DNA from: a virus
DNA: 64,000 nucleotides
Virus record (IMG/VR): IMGVR_UViG_3300040771_000047
Span: 593 to 64,592 of that record
Strand: one strand, 5' to 3'
Under the pieces are notes generated by a model that was not told where the DNA came from, ran no database searches, and saw only the letters and a list, made by a program, of their open reading frames with translations. This document shows positions 1,320-32,179 of the stretch, piece by piece. The position numbers were made by a program, and so were the translations under genes. Position 1 is the stretch's first letter. Every line of letters starts with the position of its first letter.

Positions 1320-4076
1320 TTAACTTAAATAATAAGTTGATTGTTTTAATATATCTTTCGGCAATACTGCATCAACAGTAAACCCGACAACTCCCAATTT
1401 TGCAAGCTCGAAACATTCTTCATTTGAAAAAACATCCCAAGCTATAATGCCTATATTACTATTTTTAGCAAGAATAATGTCAGCCAATGTATTTTGATTC
1501 AAGTGTACTTTCTGAACTGTTACATAGGCTTTATTAACCCCATTTTGAAATGTAGAAACTATTGATATCATGGCCTGAGTTATTGCAGTATAAGGCACAT
1601 ATACAACAGTTGCATTTGGCTTGAGGTTTACTATTTTCACCAAATTAGACGAATAAGAAGATAACCACATACATTTGTCCAACATACCGTATTTACTTAG
1701 TATCGATAAAAGAGTGCTTAACTGAGTGTCTGATAAATTCGATTTTGTTTCAAAACAGGGAATTGCGTTTTCACATAGGCACATATGTACAAACTCTTCA
1801 AAAGATGGTATTTTCACTCCAGTATATTCTGGAGATTTCCAAGAGCCGAAATCATATGTTCTTGCCGTCGCAAACGTCATTGAAGATATGTTACCCGTTC
1901 CGTTAGATGTTCTATCTATTGTATTGTCATGCAGTAATACAGGCACTCCATCAGAAGTCCATGAAATGTCAGTTTCAAAATATTTATATCCTTTTTCAAC
2001 AGATAAAGCATAGGCTTCTAATGTATTCTCAGGAGCTACATTATTAAACCCTCTATGACTTAAAACCATGTAAGTGTTAAAGTTGTGGTTATCATTAACA
2101 ATGCGCGCGCCAATGATTTTAGTCACAGTAGTTGAATCCAAAAAAGTCTTGTCTGACGAGTATGTCAAACTTACGTTTGCATCTATAAAACTACTAACAC
2201 TCACGCCCGCATCAGTAACCAAAGCAATTGTAAACCTCGCATAATCGTACCCAAGCGGAACCTTAAAAGAACCACCATTATACACATAGCCACTATCTAA
2301 AGAAGTAGAGTAATTTACGCCATCAGCAGAATATGAACAACCAATTTTATATAAAGGATTTATACTTACTTTTATATTAAAAGGGGAAATCAATATCATA
2401 GGTACTAATGTATTAATCCGTGTATTTGCGTATGGACTAAATGGCGACCCTAAAGTCCAAACTGTTTTGCTAAAGTCTAAAAATTGAGTTTCTTTAGGTA
2501 TTAATTTTTCTATTTTCTGAAACGGCAATATAGCATCTCTTATGTTCGATAATGTACTTATTCTAGCAGTAGAAGTTGTTTTCAAACCTAGTACACTTAT
2601 AGAAGGGATATCCGAAGGTAAAATCGAAGCTTCGTTTGTTCTCGACACAATTATTCGTAAATAACTATATCCATCAGGAATAGAAACAATGTTCCCATTA
2701 TATTTCCACCCCGTATTATAAATTGCATCGTAATCTACCCCATTCAAACTATACCACACAGCTATTTTATACAATGGGTCAATACTCATTTGTAAAGAAA
2801 AAGGAGCACTTACATATAGATTTACTCCAGTCGAAACCCTGTTAGCATTAAGAAGAGAGGGGAAACTGCCCTGTACCCATATCGCATTTTTTAAATCATA
2901 AGTTACCGTTGGCACAACAGGTAATAATTTTTCAATAATAGGTATGTTTTTTACTATAGAAGATGAAAATTTAATACTTAAACCATGATCATTTGTGTCT
3001 GTTAATACTGACCCATCTGTTTTTTTAATAATAAACTTTACAAATTTATCTCCTGTAGGTACTGTGTATGTTGCAGAATTAAGCAACCAAGCAGAATCCC
3101 CACCTAATGAAGTACTTATTACCCCTGAGCGTATAGCAACTTCGTAGCCGCTATTAATAGCAATAGTTATTGTTGGATTATCAATAATTTGAAACGCCTC
3201 TGCTGTTTTTATCCTTGTATTATTTGTATCTTCAACAACTCCACTAATGCTACCTATTACGTATTTAGTTTTATTAGATAAGTTAATATCAGACTCTACA
3301 GGAAGAACCATATTAACGGGTGATAGTTTAAGTAAATCCGTTAATTTACTTAAACTATCGCTTATAGCTTGATAAAACAATCCCGTTGTTTGTATCGTGC
3401 CATCATAACTAACTAAACATAAAATTTGCGATTGCGTAGGTACTACATTATCCAAGAATTGGAATAAACCTGTACTTGTTCCACCTGCATTGTCCCATAA
3501 TATATCACTATTACCTGAAAGCATAGAGGAATTAATAATTAAATACATCCTAGTTCCCAAAAGAGGAAGAGTTAAATTATAATCTAAATTTCCAACTATA
3601 TTATACCGAATTCCTTTAGATAAAATAGAAAATCCTGCTTTTTTTACAGTTACTTTTCTTAATGTACTATTGTATGTGATGTTATTTATAGAGCTTGCAA
3701 AAGAAGGAATTACACTAGCTAATTCGCTGCTTTTTACATAAGTAGTCAAATCGAAAGCTGTTTGACTTATAGAAAATGCACCCGCAGCACTTCTTGAAAT
3801 AATAGCAAAACTGTTAGATTCTACTATTACACCCCCGTAATTAGTGTATGTTCCTGCTTGGGTTGCTGTGAATGATGCAATACCCGTACCCGTTGGGGCT
3901 GGCGAAGTGGGTACTATTGAGATACCACTTGCACCTGTTACAGTAGCAATAATTAGATTTTCTAAATCTCTAGCTGAGCCAGTGTATCCACCTCTTAAAA
4001 GTCTGTCTGCTAAAGCAAGTGCTGTCAGATTTGAAGTATAGTCTTCAATTCTTTCTTTTCTTATTTTAATACCCAT
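1320..4076 (-). CDS. Tail fibre/spike protein with C-terminal glycerophosphodiester phosphodiesterase (GDPD) domain
   Basis: C-terminal SHRG..APENTLEAY..FETDISWTSDGVPVLLHD.TIDRTSNGTG is the GDPD/UgpQ signature. N-terminal Thr/Gly-rich attachment region and three ~100-aa repeated modules. Confidence 0.85.
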   Translation of the reverse strand: MGIKIRKERIEDYTSNLTALALADRLLRGGYTGSARDLENLIIATVTGASGISIVPTSPAPTGTGIASFTATQAGTYTNYGGVIVESNSFAIISRSAAGAFSISQTAFDLTTYVKSSELASVIPSFASSINNITYNSTLRKVTVKKAGFSILSKGIRYNIVGNLDYNLTLPLLGTRMYLIINSSMLSGNSDILWDNAGGTSTGLFQFLDNVVPTQSQILCLVSYDGTIQTTGLFYQAISDSLSKLTDLLKLSPVNMVLPVESDINLSNKTKYVIGSISGVVEDTNNTRIKTAEAFQIIDNPTITIAINSGYEVAIRSGVISTSLGGDSAWLLNSATYTVPTGDKFVKFIIKKTDGSVLTDTNDHGLSIKFSSSIVKNIPIIEKLLPVVPTVTYDLKNAIWVQGSFPSLLNANRVSTGVNLYVSAPFSLQMSIDPLYKIAVWYSLNGVDYDAIYNTGWKYNGNIVSIPDGYSYLRIIVSRTNEASILPSDIPSISVLGLKTTSTARISTLSNIRDAILPFQKIEKLIPKETQFLDFSKTVWTLGSPFSPYANTRINTLVPMILISPFNIKVSINPLYKIGCSYSADGVNYSTSLDSGYVYNGGSFKVPLGYDYARFTIALVTDAGVSVSSFIDANVSLTYSSDKTFLDSTTVTKIIGARIVNDNHNFNTYMVLSHRGFNNVAPENTLEAYALSVEKGYKYFETDISWTSDGVPVLLHDNTIDRTSNGTGNISSMTFATARTYDFGSWKSPEYTGVKIPSFEEFVHMCLCENAIPCFETKSNLSDTQLSTLLSILSKYGMLDKCMWLSSYSSNLVKIVNLKPNATVVYVPYTAITQAMISIVSTFQNGVNKAYVTVQKVHLNQNTLADIILAKNSNIGIIAWDVFSNEECFELAKLGVVGFTVDAVLPKDILKQSTYYLS

Positions 4077-4169
4077 GTGTATGTATGTATTTTATATTAG
4101 TGTATAAATTTTCTATTAAAAATGACAAAGTTCATAAATTGTACCTTTGTTACTTATTTAATTTAATTA

Positions 4170-7100
4170 TTAATGACTTACCCAAGATGTGCCATTAAAA
4201 AATACAGGACATTTAACCGTTCCTCCTCCTGTTAAAGCTCCTATATAAGTTGGAGCAGTTGCATCTGTAACAAAAGCAATGTCTCCCAAAATTCCACTAG
4301 GTAAGGTAGCTACTGTGTAACCATTATTAGGACTGTAACCTCCTATAACCTCCCATTTAGTGCCATTATCAAATAGAGAAATAGCTTGACCCTTTTGTAA
4401 AACTAAAGAGACAGAATCTACATTTGTAAATATAACATCTGTTACAGCCCTATTTATAGTTAAAGAGGATTGACTTTCATTTTTAAAGTAATAAATACCA
4501 TCATTAATTAATGCCCTGTCAGGCAGTGTAAATACCCCATTAGCACCTCCATTATAAACCCATCTGTTAGCTGTTTTGTTTATTATTGTGTTGACTGCAA
4601 CTGTTTTAGAAAAATTTCTAATATCGCTAGTGTTAAAACTCCTTGACACTTCCCACCATAATGTCCCATTAGTCATTAATGTAAGTGATGCCTCTGCTTT
4701 GTTTTGAAAATCTCCTAAAAGTTCTAGCCTTTGGGATAAAGGTACGGCAGCATCAGCATCTTTTACTGTAACAGCATTACTGCTAAATCTTATTGTAGTT
4801 ATTTTATTTTGCCTGCCTCCATCAATACCTTGAATGTCTAAAGTACCTGTGTAATTAAATACATCACCTTGATACGGCAAGTATAATATATTTCTAAAAA
4901 CTCCACCCCCCACATCTGTACTGATTACGTTCGAGTTTGACAAAGCACCCATAGTAGCACTTCTTGTGTCTGCATTATTTTTAATGACAGAGGCAACATC
5001 TTTCTGACTGTCTAAAACAGAGTTATTCGTAGAAGTAGGGTTAAAGAAATTATCTTGAATTGAGTAAAAAGAGTTTGAATTATTTTGTATTTCCACAATA
5101 GGGTTAGTAAAATCAACGGCTGTATTGTTGGTGACTACAGTACCTATATTGGCAGCTCCTAAGAAAATAAATCTATTAGTAGACGCTAAATTTTGCCCGT
5201 CCACTTCGTTTGAAACAATTTTCATTCTTTTAGTACTGTTGAGCCTCACGCCTTTACCGCTTGTGACTTTCTTCGCAAAATCGTAAAATTCAAAGCCTGT
5301 TATCAAGCAACCCTCGCCACCGTCAATATCAAAAACATCCTCGTCGGTGTCGTGTACACGCCCCCCAAATAGCTTGAAGTCTGACCGTGAAGCGTCTGTG
5401 TTTATATTCCACTTAAATAAATTTTCACCAGTAAAAGATACATCATAAGGGCTTCTAACAACTCCATTTAAATTGTAAATTTTTATCCCCCAATGAGAAT
5501 TACCACTGAATGTAATGCCATTCTCACCAACTTTCCCCTCGAATTCCATAACTCCCTTAACCGAGTCTCCACCAATATTTTTGAAATTAGCGGTTTCAGT
5601 CCCTCCTGTTTTAGTGTTCCCCGTTAAAAAATTGGCTATCTGCTTGTAACCATAAACAATTCTTTTATAATTATATCCAAAAATATTTTCGTAATTACTC
5701 CAAGAGTTGCGACCAAGTTCTAACACAATACCGTTATCCCATACCCAATTTACAAGGCTATTATCTTTATTAACCGTACCTGTATAAGTGTAGGCTGGAT
5801 TAAAATGAACATCAGAAACTAAATCATTATCTATCATTCCACCAATTCTTATACCTCTGTACAAAGGATAACCATTAATTTTAGAAACCTTAAGTTGTCC
5901 GTGATCTCTCCTTGCATCAACCGCAATATAAGAATTGCCAAAGTTTACATCGTCAATTTTATTTTCTAATGAGTTTTGCAAAATAACAATAGATGCTGGA
6001 TAACTTACAGGAGTTAAAGATTGCATTGTTTGTTCTGGATAATTGAAAGATACCCCTTTTATTCCCGCCCCTTGTTCAAATTTAAAAACAGAATTTGCAG
6101 TTGTGTTTTCCCCATCACCTTGCCCAAATTTCACAAAAATTATACTTCCTTTTAAATTTTCCCACAAAGAAGTAGTATTATTAAATCTTGGTATATCGTG
6201 ACCCCCAAAATTAAGGGTTATACCCTGTTTAACGGTTATAGCTGAAAACACAGTTATTTGGGCAACTATTTTTATTTCGCCAATTTCCCTTGTAAATGCG
6301 TAATCAATTGTTTTTTGAATAGCTATTGCATCGTCATTTATTCCATCATATTTAGCACCAAAATATTGACAATCTAATTCTGTAAATATTCTTTTAATTC
6401 TCTTACCGTCAGCAGTAACTAAAACAGTACCCATATTATCTGGGCTTGTCGTATCTGTTGCATCATAATACCAGTTACCCTCTTGTCCTTTGTCTGTGGT
6501 GTAAAGATTAATATTTGTTAAGTCCCCTGATAAAAGTCGTATTTCTGATATTGTTCTTTTGTATTGTTTTGTGACTTTTTCTTCAATCTGAGCCTGAGTA
6601 TAATAAGGTGCATTATTAGCACTTGCATTTGTCCCGTAAATAAATGTAATGTAATCTCCTGCAACTAAAGCATAATTGACTGTAACTTGAGTTGTTGAAG
6701 TAAGTGTGTATTCAAAATTTGCAAAGGACAAGCCAATACCTTGAACCTGGATACCAACTATTGTAAAATAGGTATTAGGTAAAGTAAAAACTTGTGAACC
6801 TCCATTAAATGTGACTTCGTACCTAAGAAACTGTGACTGATCTGAAATGTTAACTTTCAAGTCTAGTTGACTTTTATTTACCGCTTGTCCTGCTAGTGTA
6901 GCATTAGGTACAAGTACTGACCCAGTGAAAGTAGCATTTATAAATTTAACTAGTTTTTTAAATGGATTATAAGTAAAAAAGGTATCTTTAAATATAAAGT
7001 CATATAGACCTGTATTACCAAAGAAAGGTACCGGAAGGTCATTATCAACATTTGATGTATCAGTAAGAATTGAAAAAGCTTTTGTAGCAGTTACTGCATT

Positions 7101-26376: not shown

Positions 26377-26586
26377 ATGAGTAAAAAACCTAAAACCTAT
26401 TCAGATTCTAAGCAAACTATGTGGGAAACATGGTTTGTTATATCCATTGTTATTGTATTTGCTTACTTATGTGTAGGTGTTATGACAGGTTCAGCAGAAC
26501 AATTCCCTAATTGGGATATCTTTGCTATACTTGCAATAGTTAATTTACTAGTATGTCTTTATAAAGGTAGTACAATAAAACATTAA
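26377..26586 (+). CDS. Small two-TM membrane protein
   Basis: Two hydrophobic helices. Confidence 0.55.
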   Translation: MSKKPKTYSDSKQTMWETWFVISIVIVFAYLCVGVMTGSAEQFPNWDIFAILAIVNLLVCLYKGSTIKH

Positions 26587-26588
26587 TT

Positions 26589-26738
26589 ATGAAGAAAGCA
26601 ACTTATGATGTAACTCTTAATGGAATTACAGTTGTAGTCAAAGCAAGAGATAGATTTGAAGCTTTACTTAAAGCTGAAATTAAAGTAGCTATAATATTAA
26701 ACAACAACAAAGTAAAAAGCTCTACACCTGACTCTTAA
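26589..26738 (+). CDS. Small protein (49 aa)
   Basis: MKKATYDVTLNGITVVVKARDRFEALLKAE...; 2 nt after the previous stop. Confidence 0.5.
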   Translation: MKKATYDVTLNGITVVVKARDRFEALLKAEIKVAIILNNNKVKSSTPDS

Positions 26739-26759
26739 CTGAGAGGGTAAATAGTATAT

Positions 26760-27235
26760 ATAGAATGCTAGTGAAGTCTAGAAGTTGTTGTTTATAAAGT
26801 GGACTAAACATTGAAAACCACTATAAAAATTGGATACTATCAGTAATGGTAGATGTGTAGCGTCCTTGAGAAAGATGTGGTACATCTCAGTAAGAAACAC
26901 TGACTACACAAATGAGCCAATATCCGTGAGGACTTGGGTTATTTATACTTAATGAAGTGGCTCAATAAAACCGAGAGCCTTGAAAACTGTTAGTCATACA
27001 GGATGTAGGATAGATTCCTTTAAATAACTTGAATAAGAGCATTAAGCAACCGGACTTAAGTATAAATAATTTCTCAGCAAAAGAAGTAAACTGTTTGAAG
27101 CCTGCTAATCAGAAAGGAATGGACAGGCAAATAGTCAAAACTCAAACCCGTTAACCGTTTACTGACCCTACTCTTATACATGACAGATGAAAATCGTTGT
27201 CTTAGGGCATAGTGTATAAGAAAGAGGGTGCTAAT
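26760..27235 (+). ncRNA. Putative large structured non-coding RNA, family unassigned
   Basis: ORF-free ~500 nt with many nested stems, GNRA tetraloops (GTGA, GAAA) and a perfect 14-bp long-range pairing (26939-52 with 27056-69). Ends approximate. Confidence 0.65.
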
Positions 27236-27311
27236 ATATTTTTGCGAGTAAATATAATGATAAGTGCCACTACAAAGTGGATTTTTATTAACAATCTTAA
27301 AAACAAATGTT

Positions 27312-27995
27312 ATGAAAGAGCAGTTTAAAAGAGTACAGGTAATTATGTTACCAATGATAAATAGTATTGGTAAAGTAGGTATTTACTTATATGAAGGACA
27401 TTTAGGGTATAATGATAGAAAGGTGGTTAGTACAGATGCTCTTACACAACATCTTTACATTATTTCGGATGAAGAAATTAAGGAAAGTGATTGGTATTAT
27501 GATTTATATTTTAAAGAAGTGTTTCAATGTAGAAATTTGAAATATACTGAAGAACATAAAAGAATACATAAAAAGATTATAGCTACAACAGATAGTTCTC
27601 TGCTCTACACTGAACAAAGGACTGAAAGAGGAAATTTTGAAAACTTACCTTTTGAAGAAGGTATACATAAAGCTAATTTTAAGCCTACTTATATCTCTAG
27701 ACCATCACAACAGTTTATTGAAAAGTACATTGAGGCCTATAATAAGGGAGAGATTATCACGGATGTGTTAGTGGAGTATCATTCTATCATAAATACTAGA
27801 AATCACACTGAAAGGTATCAAGTTCAAACTTTAAAGATGAACCCTAGAGACAACACTATTACAATTAAGAAATTAAAAGATAGTTGGAGTAGAGAAGAGG
27901 TTTTTGACTTAATGAAAAAGTCCCTTCAAAAAGGTTTTAATAGAGACATTTTAGCATGGGACCAATTAGAAATTTGGATTAAAGAGAAATTATAA
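27312..27995 (+). CDS. Hypothetical phage protein
   Basis: Long ORF; ATG 27312 preferred over the GTG at 27264; QHLYIISDEEIKE.DW and KIIATTD..L motifs recall a common Bacteroidota phage family. Confidence 0.65.
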   Translation: MKEQFKRVQVIMLPMINSIGKVGIYLYEGHLGYNDRKVVSTDALTQHLYIISDEEIKESDWYYDLYFKEVFQCRNLKYTEEHKRIHKKIIATTDSSLLYTEQRTERGNFENLPFEEGIHKANFKPTYISRPSQQFIEKYIEAYNKGEIITDVLVEYHSIINTRNHTERYQVQTLKMNPRDNTITIKKLKDSWSREEVFDLMKKSLQKGFNRDILAWDQLEIWIKEKL

Positions 27996-31263: not shown

Positions 31264-31682
31264 GGGGATGACTGGTATTGATTGCTCATACAATGTTACA
31301 TAATTCAGCACAGAGAGATAACTGTTTAAAACTAAGGTGAACTCAAGTAATTGACAAACAAAACAATAATGCCCAAGTACAAGCTAATATGAATGTAGTT
31401 CATAACATCTTAAATGGTGGAATATCTGTATCTGTTGATACAGAAGAACTAGCTGTGGCTGCCTAACCAAAGAATAGGTGATTACCTCAAATTTAGTATT
31501 GAGCTTAAATTTTACTATTACACAGTTTGCTAGTATGACAAACTAGATGGTGGAAGTTAACTAGATCAGGAAATTCCTGGCAGTTGGCCCTTGTCTAACT
31601 TAAAGACTTTAAATAAAAGTAAGCTGTAAAAAATTGTGTAATAAAAATGAGTAAGACCCGGGTTCGACTCCCGGCATCTCCA
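31264..31682 (+). ncRNA. ssrA: Transfer-messenger RNA (tmRNA)
   Basis: Acceptor stem GGGGATG/CATCTCC with G3-U70 Ala determinant and A73; T arm CCGGG-TTCGACT-CCCGG; internal tag frame ending ...EELAVAA-TAA (31464-66); CCA not fully encoded. Confidence 0.92.
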
Positions 31683-31689
31683 CAATATG

Positions 31690-32053: not shown

Positions 32054-32128
32054 GGAGAAGTAGCTCAGTTGGTTAGAGCGTGGGTATGGATATGCCTGAA
32101 GTCATAGGTTCAAATCCTATCTTCTCCA
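32054..32128 (+). tRNA. tRNA with non-canonical 8-nt anticodon loop (AUGGAUAU); Ile(GAU)-like with one extra G, identity undetermined
   Basis: Acceptor GGAGAAG/CTTCTCC + A73, D arm GCTC/GAGC, T arm ATAGG-TTCAAAT-CCTAT, 5-nt variable loop; anticodon arm is 18 nt instead of 17. Confidence 0.85.
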
Positions 32129-32179
32129 CACAAATTGCGAACTAAACAAGAACAGTCAACCCTCAAGTACTTAAAAACA

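Follow-up and report, generated by a model that had tools for sequence, protein, structure and literature searches.

The window, by which we mean the whole 64,000-nucleotide stretch analysed here, comprises bases 593-64592 of an 89-kb IMG/VR virus record (IMGVR_UViG_3300040771_000047) that is 95% complete. The GC content of the window is ~31%, and its genes point leftward as far as ~24 kb and rightward beyond. The DNA of the record is also present whole in one ice metagenome run. [quoted passage not shown] Chance fragments aside, no plus-strand ORF of 60 aa or more is found in the region under table 11, under table 4, or with TAG or TAA read as glutamine, and the alternative codes opened no credible frame. 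A small conserved peptide starting from the AUG in AGAUGUGUUG was considered and ruled out, the changes in the P4 stem of the RNA being compensatory and non-synonymous.

At the gathering threshold, Rfam models recognise only two features in the whole window: a phage tmRNA gene at 31264-31685 and an odd tRNA at 32054-32128. The tmRNA gene (RF00023, 64.3 bits; ARAGORN tag VDTEELAVAA*) lies 4 kb downstream of the RNA on the same strand, and neither ARAGORN nor RF00023 calls a tmRNA at 26700-27236. Past the 3' end of the RNA, a consensus scan found a terminator-like hairpin, CCACTACAAAGTGG, followed by a T run (27267-27290, plus strand), which is a candidate terminator; a hairpin of the CCACTACAAAGTGG type also lies 3' of the RNA copy in the closest relative, L009. 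The window's own genome contains a single copy of the RNA. The upstream motif CTCTTAACTGAGAGG was rejected as a repeated promoter, having only one copy in the window, and possible targets with complementarity to the invariant P0 loop number 78 in the window, close to the 73 expected by chance. Folded as a single sequence, the plus strand reaches an MFE of -110 kcal/mol (z = -1.1), which 13 of 100 shuffles equal, so a list of pairings drawn from the window alone proves nothing and the evidence for the structure comes from homologues.

Distribution and conserved fold of the RNA family

The first relatives came from 15 viral loci fetched through the 227-aa protein encoded downstream. Five of the 15 contain blocks resembling the region, and their alignment consists of four near-invariant blocks with variable stretches between them. 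A 14-mer from one block has at least 120 matches in IMG/VR, and among the matches listed ~70 loci have the remaining blocks too, with their order preserved; an 18-mer taken from a different block occurs in 115 IMG/VR contigs. A sequence profile places the RNA in 161 of ~213 fetched loci, mostly IMG/VR phage contigs. The carriers amount to ~150 environmental phage contigs that range from 20-kb fragments to 373-kb jumbo genomes, several of them complete with terminal repeats, and the family as a whole occurs in aquatic, ice and marine phages, including a Flavobacteriia phage. From the first hairpin to the 3' tail, members are 269-513 nt long around a core of ~220 nt, and tandem copies occur in L088/L117/L207, L139 and L029.

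Among 50,697 deposited phage genomes, blastn with the window RNA gives no match, and blastn with a consensus-like member finds only the cultured, crAss-like Cellulophaga phage phi14:2 (Crassvirales). This phage has a full copy of the RNA at ~2911-3360, in the gap from gp006 to gp010; the gap that follows holds a tmRNA. A 23-mer pattern matched only three MAG contigs among 185,579 species genomes. A covariance-model search of 150 Bacteroidota genomes returned nothing credible, on which ground a host origin was ruled out. Judged from these searches, the family is phage-specific. The RNA core is near-identical in phages whose proteins are only 35-47% identical, which, together with the restriction to phages, suggests a very conserved target.

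Seven helices, one of which forms a conserved pseudoknot, are backed by covariation in the aligned sequences. The main test used an unbiased alignment of 153 unique copies, made with a sequence-only HMM fitted to no structure. In that alignment the seven helices are paired in 84-99% of cells and show 3-106 double-change cells, and in none of them does any of 300 shuffles reach the observed count. The AGUAAU hairpin (89% of cells paired) has 106 double-change cells, P4 (92.5%) has 66, P3 (98.6%) has 32, P6 (95.5%) has 28 and P7b (83.6%) has 25. The pseudoknot (97.8% paired) has five double-change cells, compared with 0.2 in shuffles, plus 13 changes from U-A to U-G, and the nearly invariant P7a (98.6% paired) has three; because both are almost invariant, these two helices rest mainly on conservation. 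A second alignment, of 107 hits to a trimmed covariance model, leans toward the model but gives the same picture as the unbiased one, with pairing in 96.8% of cells, double changes in 28 of the 30 modelled pairs and a covariation score of 0.239, against 0.082 when shuffled (0 of 500 reach it) and at most 0.035 with slid partners. A further helix proposed by RNAalifold, GAGU/ACUC, was not adopted, since it shows no double changes and overlaps P7b. Many of the conserved pairs are G-U; the opposite strand would have A-C mismatches in their place, and the fold is therefore confined to the plus strand.

The RNA can be followed from 5' to 3', all positions being on the plus strand. At its 5' side is an accessory domain (26700-26792, a presumed boundary) closed by the 9-bp helix AACAACAAC/GTTGTTGTT. 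The module CTGACTCTTAACTGAGAGG ... GCTAGTGAAGTCTAG within it is found at only three loci, namely the window, L009 and L109, and L109 has it within the variable P1 arm of the RNA. The depth of contigs from RNA libraries climbs from ~26700. The accessory domain common to L009, and its placement within the P1 arm of L109, suggest that the window RNA starts near 26700.

The hairpin P0, AGTGG/CCACT (26798-26822), presents the conserved loop ACTAAACATTGAAAA; of 150 copies, 129 have the loop motif TAAACATTGA upstream, and across the family the loop takes the form (Y)UAAACAUUGA. The P0 stem covaries (AGG/CCT, GTCG/CGAC, AGC/GCT, CTCA/TGAG and CCGCT/AGCGG), so that at least eight different stem sequences surround one and the same loop. 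Most members have a variable P1 arm (UGUAAAU.../...AUUUACA), which the window lacks. The hairpin CTATC-AGTAAT-GGTAG (26837-26852) is supported by covariation and bears the conserved hexaloop AGUAAU. It is followed by P3, TGTGTAG/CTACACA (26854-26860 with 26904-26910), all seven pairs of which show double changes; relative to the consensus TGTGTTG/CAACACA, the window has itself swapped a T-A pair for A-T. P3 encloses a variable hairpin, TCAGT/ACTGA (26887-26903), and, directly inside it, the P4 hairpin CGTC-CTTGAGAAA-GATG (26861-26877). The P4 stem covaries, and its nearly invariant loop (26866-26872), UUGAGAA, provides the 5' strand for the pseudoknot.

Between P3 and the 3' strand of the pseudoknot lies the invariant linker AATGAG (26911-26916), and TTCTCAG (27071-27077) then pairs with the P4 loop TTGAGAA. 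The P6 domain (27085-27163) is closed by AGTAAACTGTT/AACCGTTTACT (27085-27095 with 27153-27163), a helix that covaries across the family and that in the window departs from the consensus GTAGTTA/TAACTAC by compensatory changes; inside the domain is the variable hairpin GCCTG/CAGGC (27100-27128). P7, ACCCT-AC-TCTTATACA ... TGTATAAGA-AAG-AGGGT, with the tip GAT-GAAA-ATC (27165-27229), is supported by conservation in P7a and by covariation in P7b. Conservation stops in all alignments with the 3' tail GCTAATA (27230-27236), where the conserved RNA likely ends; in other phages the next feature begins within 3-40 nt and is a tRNA, a tmRNA, an ORF or another copy of the RNA. In all, ~60 positions do not vary, and many of these belong to loops and junctions; the arms between the invariant blocks vary freely in length, often with GNRA loops at their ends.

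The columns of the linker AATGAG are invariant and yet the linker is an insertion hot-spot, with insertions in the window, L063, L021, L101, L026 and L086. The insertion in the window is a lineage-specific expansion of 154 nt (26917-27070) that is missing in L009, the closest relative, which is 95% identical in the 3' part and has ACAAAUGAG-UUCUCAG uninterrupted at the same point. The expansion consists of a hairpin, CCAA-TA-TCC-GTGA-GGA-C-TTGG (26917-26937), and a domain closed by a perfect 14-bp helix (26939-26952 with 27056-27069). L063 has 38 extra nt at this point, among them the same AUCC-GNRA-GGA hairpin on a covarying stem. In L021, L101 and L026 the extra 520-680 nt at the linker encode an HNH_3 endonuclease, and L086 has an ORF-deleted derivative of this insert; the HNH-bearing inserts gave no hit to a group I intron model, and their splice boundaries could not be fixed. 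RNA contigs at a depth of 159-200 cross the 3' junction of the window-type insert and none was reported to skip it, so the insert is apparently retained in the RNA as an expansion at its periphery. The 154-nt insert would thus be a tolerated addition outside the core.

The first-pass annotation had described the region from the letters of the window as a multiply pseudoknotted non-coding RNA without an ORF. The complementary segments it named are all present where it put them, the coding scans described above bear out the lack of an ORF, and its pairings AGTGG/CCACT, TGTGTAG/CTACACA and ACCCT..TCTTATACA/TGTATAAGA..AGGGT correspond to P0, P3 and P7, each backed by family conservation or covariation. 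The TCC-GTGA-GGA hairpin is likewise supported, since it recurs in L063, and is lengthened in the window by CCAA/TTGG, whereas the helix TGAGCCA/TGGCTCA drawn around it finds no support and would consume the invariant linker. AGATGT/ACATCT clashes with the covarying P4 hairpin CGTC-CTTGAGAAA-GATG; TCAGT/ACTGA and GCCTG/CAGGC, both located in variable arms, are plausible. Three crossing helices had been proposed, and the word 'multiply' overstated the case, as only TTGAGAA/TTCTCAG is a conserved pseudoknot supported by homologues. CGTCCT/AGGATG is unsupported and reaches into the window-specific insert, and the perfect 14-bp helix is real but closes that insert and makes no conserved crossing. 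The start it gave, 26760, is probably too late; the RNA more likely begins near 26700.

Expression and genomic company

Contigs from relatives are found in four metatranscriptomes, two from ice and two marine. Their depth is 95-277 over 26906-27236, compared with at most 16 on flanking genes, and falls to zero from 27278 to ~27950; as such contigs reveal neither strand nor transcript ends and RNA libraries may contain DNA, these depths are supportive rather than proof. One 559-nt marine contig, at a depth of 277, holds a family member that runs straight into a tRNA.

The transcriptome of phi14:2 provides published evidence. The g004-g005 and g005-g006 intergenic regions of this phage are transcribed rightward at levels above most protein genes, and both transcripts are already there at the first time point and do not fall off as other early transcripts do (Drobysheva et al., bioRxiv 10.1101/2020.03.07.982082). 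A 'long non-coding RNA' of phi14:2 was described there as abundant and persistent, with no function assigned (bioRxiv 10.1101/2020.03.07.982082). This part of the genome has two long ORF-free gaps, at 2905-3589, which holds the family RNA, and at 3911-4601, which holds the tmRNA (46 bits). By gene order, the g004-g005 transcript would be the family RNA. On this assignment, the transcript was seen in the published transcriptome, where it was not analysed.

No protein family is a conserved neighbour of the RNA, the only recurrent one being the 227-aa protein used for fetching; with respect to the gene for that protein, related crAss-like contigs place the RNA either 2.5 kb upstream or 1.5 kb downstream. 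A tRNA or tmRNA lies within the fetched locus in 30 of 72 cases, almost always on the same strand and sometimes beginning 3-100 nt past the 3' tail of the RNA; more than half of the loci show none in the fetched flank. Of 49 carrier records, 21 contain a tmRNA gene (18 score over the Rfam cut-off and three are near-threshold but full-length), as does one of 35 chance-matched IMG/VR contigs that served as a control, an enrichment that is only suggestive given that the control contigs are much smaller than the carriers.

Comparison with known RNAs

The family is a new class, outside all of the RNA families catalogued in Rfam 15. No Rfam 15 family gave a credible match to the window RNA and L086 at E<=10 or to the phi14:2 copy at E<=0.1, and a permissive scan of 26500-27500 at E<=10 returned only noise, such as snoRNAs and isrC. 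This agrees with the first-pass suggestion of a large phage-borne RNA that is neither GOLLD nor ROOL and possibly a new class; the checks it had called for also turned out in its favour, with no gathering-level or credible Rfam hit in the window and two other members, numerous relatives with strong covariation, RNA-library depth over the region far above that of the flanks, and an abundant, persistent phi14:2 transcript that by gene order would be this RNA. In our literature search we found no paper describing this RNA, and the large IMG/VR screen of Fremin et al. reported only motifs of 29-151 nt.

ROOL is a large structured RNA of phages and prophages that has no assigned function, lies near tRNA islands, contains pseudoknots, is highly expressed and has no known protein partner (PMC12286853). 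The RNA described here is likewise large, structured, pseudoknotted, phage-borne and often beside tRNA genes. It differs in its architecture and in its length of 269-513 nt, compared with ~580-660 nt for ROOL, and there is no sequence or model match: ROOL gave no hit at the gathering threshold in the whole window or at E<=10 in 26500-27500. GOLLD is phage- or prophage-borne, adjoins or contains tRNAs, is upregulated in lytic growth and has conserved and variable parts (PMC12286853). Presence in phages near tRNAs and a conserved part joined to variable parts are again shared. GOLLD, however, exceeds 800 nt, with its conservation in the 3' half, and has an unrelated fold; its Rfam model found nothing in the window, phi14:2 or L086, and, in contrast to GOLLD, the present RNA is probably early and persistent in phi14:2 and is linked with tmRNA genes. 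By genomic context, ROOL and GOLLD come closest among known RNAs, and only that context is shared with homo-oligomeric assemblies of their type, which build defined multimers through kissing loops and A-minor contacts.

Phage tmRNA resembles the family in occupying the same gene islands on the same strand, in being pseudoknotted, and probably in being early, abundant and persistent in phi14:2. The family RNA nonetheless lacks a tRNA-like domain and a tag reading frame and is not matched by RF00023, and the window and phi14:2 each have a separate, complete tmRNA. Species 1 and 2 of phage T4 (rnaC/rnaD) are stable RNAs of unassigned function that lie inside a tRNA cluster and are cotranscribed with the tRNAs. 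They are comparable as phage-encoded stable RNAs among tRNA genes, but they are much shorter, are not known outside T4-like phages, and are not known to possess a conserved pseudoknotted core. Bacterial RNase P RNA models (RF00010, RF00011 and related) gave no hit at E<=10 in the window and L086 or at E<=0.1 in phi14:2. The group I intron model RF00028 gave no hit either; there are no flanking exons, the neighbours vary, and the helices follow one another in an order at odds with P3/P7 nesting. The family's strand order is similar to that of P1/P2 in the HDV-like and theta ribozymes, but the intervening segment is variable, at 25-80 nt, and no HDV-type Rfam model matched.

Possible function and evolution of the RNA

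Few structured RNAs are both large and highly conserved, and such RNAs have time and again proved to be ribozymes, RNP cores or self-assembling machines. We think it probable that ~26700-27236 on the plus strand encodes a discrete, stable, trans-acting structured RNA of a previously uncatalogued phage-specific family. The combination of invariant loops and junctions with covarying stems, GNRA-capped arms of free length and a pseudoknot points to an RNA that works through its three-dimensional fold, as do the tolerance of inserts at the linker, the colonisation of that site by homing endonucleases, and the abundance and persistence of the RNA. Since downstream partners vary and there is no protein neighbour, a cis-regulator or a guide RNA is argued against. 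The RNA would be transcribed early, by the injected virion RNA polymerase in crAss-like phages, and would persist through infection. The folded RNA may then act on a conserved host machine, with the ribosome or the tRNA/tmRNA apparatus most likely; host translation or tRNA processing is put forward as the target because tRNAs and tmRNA keep the RNA company. It might do so alone or with a host protein, as has been proposed for the unrelated ROOL and GOLLD.

A more specific proposal, which we make tentatively, is that the family constitutes a third class of phage 'RNA-island' RNA, structurally unrelated to ROOL and GOLLD and expressed in Cellulophaga baltica infected by phi14:2, a pair that is in culture and amenable to genetics. 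The near-invariant junctions and loops of the RNA would then form a catalytic centre of a new kind or a surface at which the host ribosome or the tRNA/tmRNA machinery docks. A catalytic role and self-assembly of the ROOL or GOLLD kind are both conceivable and could go together. If the proposal is true, phages carry an RNA-only factor with which to take over or protect translation.

A new catalytic RNA that excises itself from polycistronic tRNA/tmRNA transcripts, or processes those neighbours, would account for the ~60 invariant positions in junctions and loops, the freely varying GNRA-capped arms and the pseudoknot, and for the tRNA or tmRNA that often follows within a few nucleotides. Such a pattern of conservation is typical of RNase P, group I and glmS ribozymes. 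We regard this reading as rather unlikely, as no Rfam ribozyme model matches, the HDV-like topology fails at a would-be P3/L3 segment that is variable and 25-80 nt long, and many copies have no adjoining RNA gene; the contigs, for their part, cannot reveal cleavage ends. Known RNAs in very divergent or rearranged form, whether RNase P RNA, a piece of tmRNA, a group I intron or SRP RNA, are a highly improbable source, even though size, pseudoknot and tRNA/tmRNA company would suit a phage RNase P-like RNA and some short strings in the RNA presumably recall group I R/S elements or RNase P. The permissive cmscan was empty for all of these families at the thresholds given above, the window has a complete tmRNA elsewhere, exons are missing from the context, and no host homologue turned up in the 150 Bacteroidota genomes. 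It is also very unlikely that the RNA is a cis-acting leader or riboswitch of the downstream gene. The terminator-like hairpin that the window and L009 have between the RNA and the conserved 227-aa gene would suit a leader, as would the ATG that some members have 6-40 nt past the purine-rich 3' block, but what lies downstream changes from phage to phage (unrelated ORFs of many families, tRNAs, a tmRNA or a second RNA copy), the RNA of related crAss-like contigs lies at a distance from the 227-aa gene or on its other side, and RNA depth falls to zero directly past the RNA with no run into the gene.

The different positions of the RNA in related phages, the tandem copies, the HNH homing-endonuclease inserts within it and the near-identity of its core where phage proteins have diverged to 35-47% identity would all be expected of a selfish or mobile element at the RNA level, for example a relic of an intron or a cassette resembling a satellite, conserved through horizontal spread and not through benefit to the phage. 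There is little to recommend this explanation, given that there are no terminal repeats or target duplications and most copies have no mobility gene; the RNA is abundant and stable, and long-term compensatory evolution of the stems around invariant loops indicates purifying selection on the fold. Finally, the region lies ~2 kb beyond the switch in gene orientation and GC skew at ~24-26 kb and is rich in inverted repeats, as might befit a replication origin, a packaging site or a promoter array that acts as DNA without any RNA. We give this idea hardly any credence: the helices keep G-U pairs that would be mismatched on the other strand, the orientation is always that of the flanking genes, the element is placed inside tRNA arrays in other phages, and high RNA-library depth is joined by published transcription.

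The 3' block AGAAAGAGGGUG is an imperfect complement to the 3' tails of sampled Bacteroidota 16S rRNAs (UACCUCCUUU), but the block is paired within P7, and a pairing with the 16S tail would be a weak lead. A widespread, phage-specific and RNA-abundant family kept together with tRNA and tmRNA genes points to an RNA-based function in the control of translation by phages. Unlike ROOL and GOLLD, the RNA is present in a cultured model phage, phi14:2, whose published transcriptome probably already records it as a major stable transcript and in which knock-out, pull-down and cryo-EM experiments are directly feasible. The annotation of this phage calls for a correction: in GenBank, three tiny antisense ORFs labelled 'hypothetical protein', since dropped by RefSeq, overlie the RNA.

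A shared module and additional copies of the RNA

A module of ~70 nt, with the sequence AAAGTAAAAAGCTC..CTGACTCTTAACTGAGAGG..TATA(A/G)TAGAA..GC(A/T)GGTGAAG, accompanies the structured RNA in the window (26709-26790) and in two of the fetched viral loci, L009 (2520-2620) and L109 (1065-1150). Two short hairpins within the module covary. In L109 the module is part of the variable P1 arm of the RNA, and in L009 and the window it precedes the RNA on the 5' side. In the RNA library X4 the module is spanned by one contig at a depth of 240. Candidate roles are a peripheral domain, a processing site or a promoter.

Tandem or second copies of the RNA are found in L088 (4087-4669), L117, L207, L139 (1235-1732), L029 (1-377) and L219, which lies on the same contig as L138 and is its second copy. 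These additional copies within one phage are more divergent. In L117 and L088 the conserved 3' tail of copy 1 is followed immediately by the first hairpin, P0, of copy 2.

HNH-encoding inserts in the RNA gene

In L021 (6729-7396), L101 (minus strand) and L026 (3768-4282) the RNA gene is interrupted at the invariant linker, AAAUGAG^UUCUCAG, by 520-680 nt of inserted sequence with an ORF for an HNH_3 homing endonuclease. L086 carries a 220-nt derivative from which the ORF has been deleted (4640-4860, minus strand). Partial target duplications lie on either side of the inserts, which matched none of the group I models.

tmRNA and tRNA genes close to the RNA

[quoted passage not shown] A tmRNA-like gene is present in 21 of the 49 phage records with the RNA. 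In Cellulophaga phage phi14:2 (L140, KC821624.1) the tmRNA (3913-4384) scores 46 bits, slightly below the Rfam cut-off, and is overlapped by the GenBank ORFs gp011 and gp012 (3794-3983); three further ORFs of 34-39 aa, gp007-gp009, lie antisense over the RNA (2988-3313). All five ORFs are probably spurious.

Among the much smaller control contigs, only L057 (IMGVR_UViG_3300044846_005309, 119,783 bp) has a tmRNA (103.5 bits). The exact 14-mer of block C of the RNA occurs near the beginning of its short fetched locus, and L057 may be a carrier overlooked by the profile search.

A tRNA in the window (32054-32129) is a good tRNA by Rfam (58 bits) and unassignable by ARAGORN, whose reported anticodon, 'ggat', reflects an unusual anticodon loop; it may be a suppressor tRNA of the frameshift type or of another unusual kind. 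Overlong tRNA matches of 95-131 nt, possibly intron-containing tRNA genes, adjoin the RNA in L109 (741-835), L044 (616-714), L069 (3002-3102) and L101 (9085-9215).
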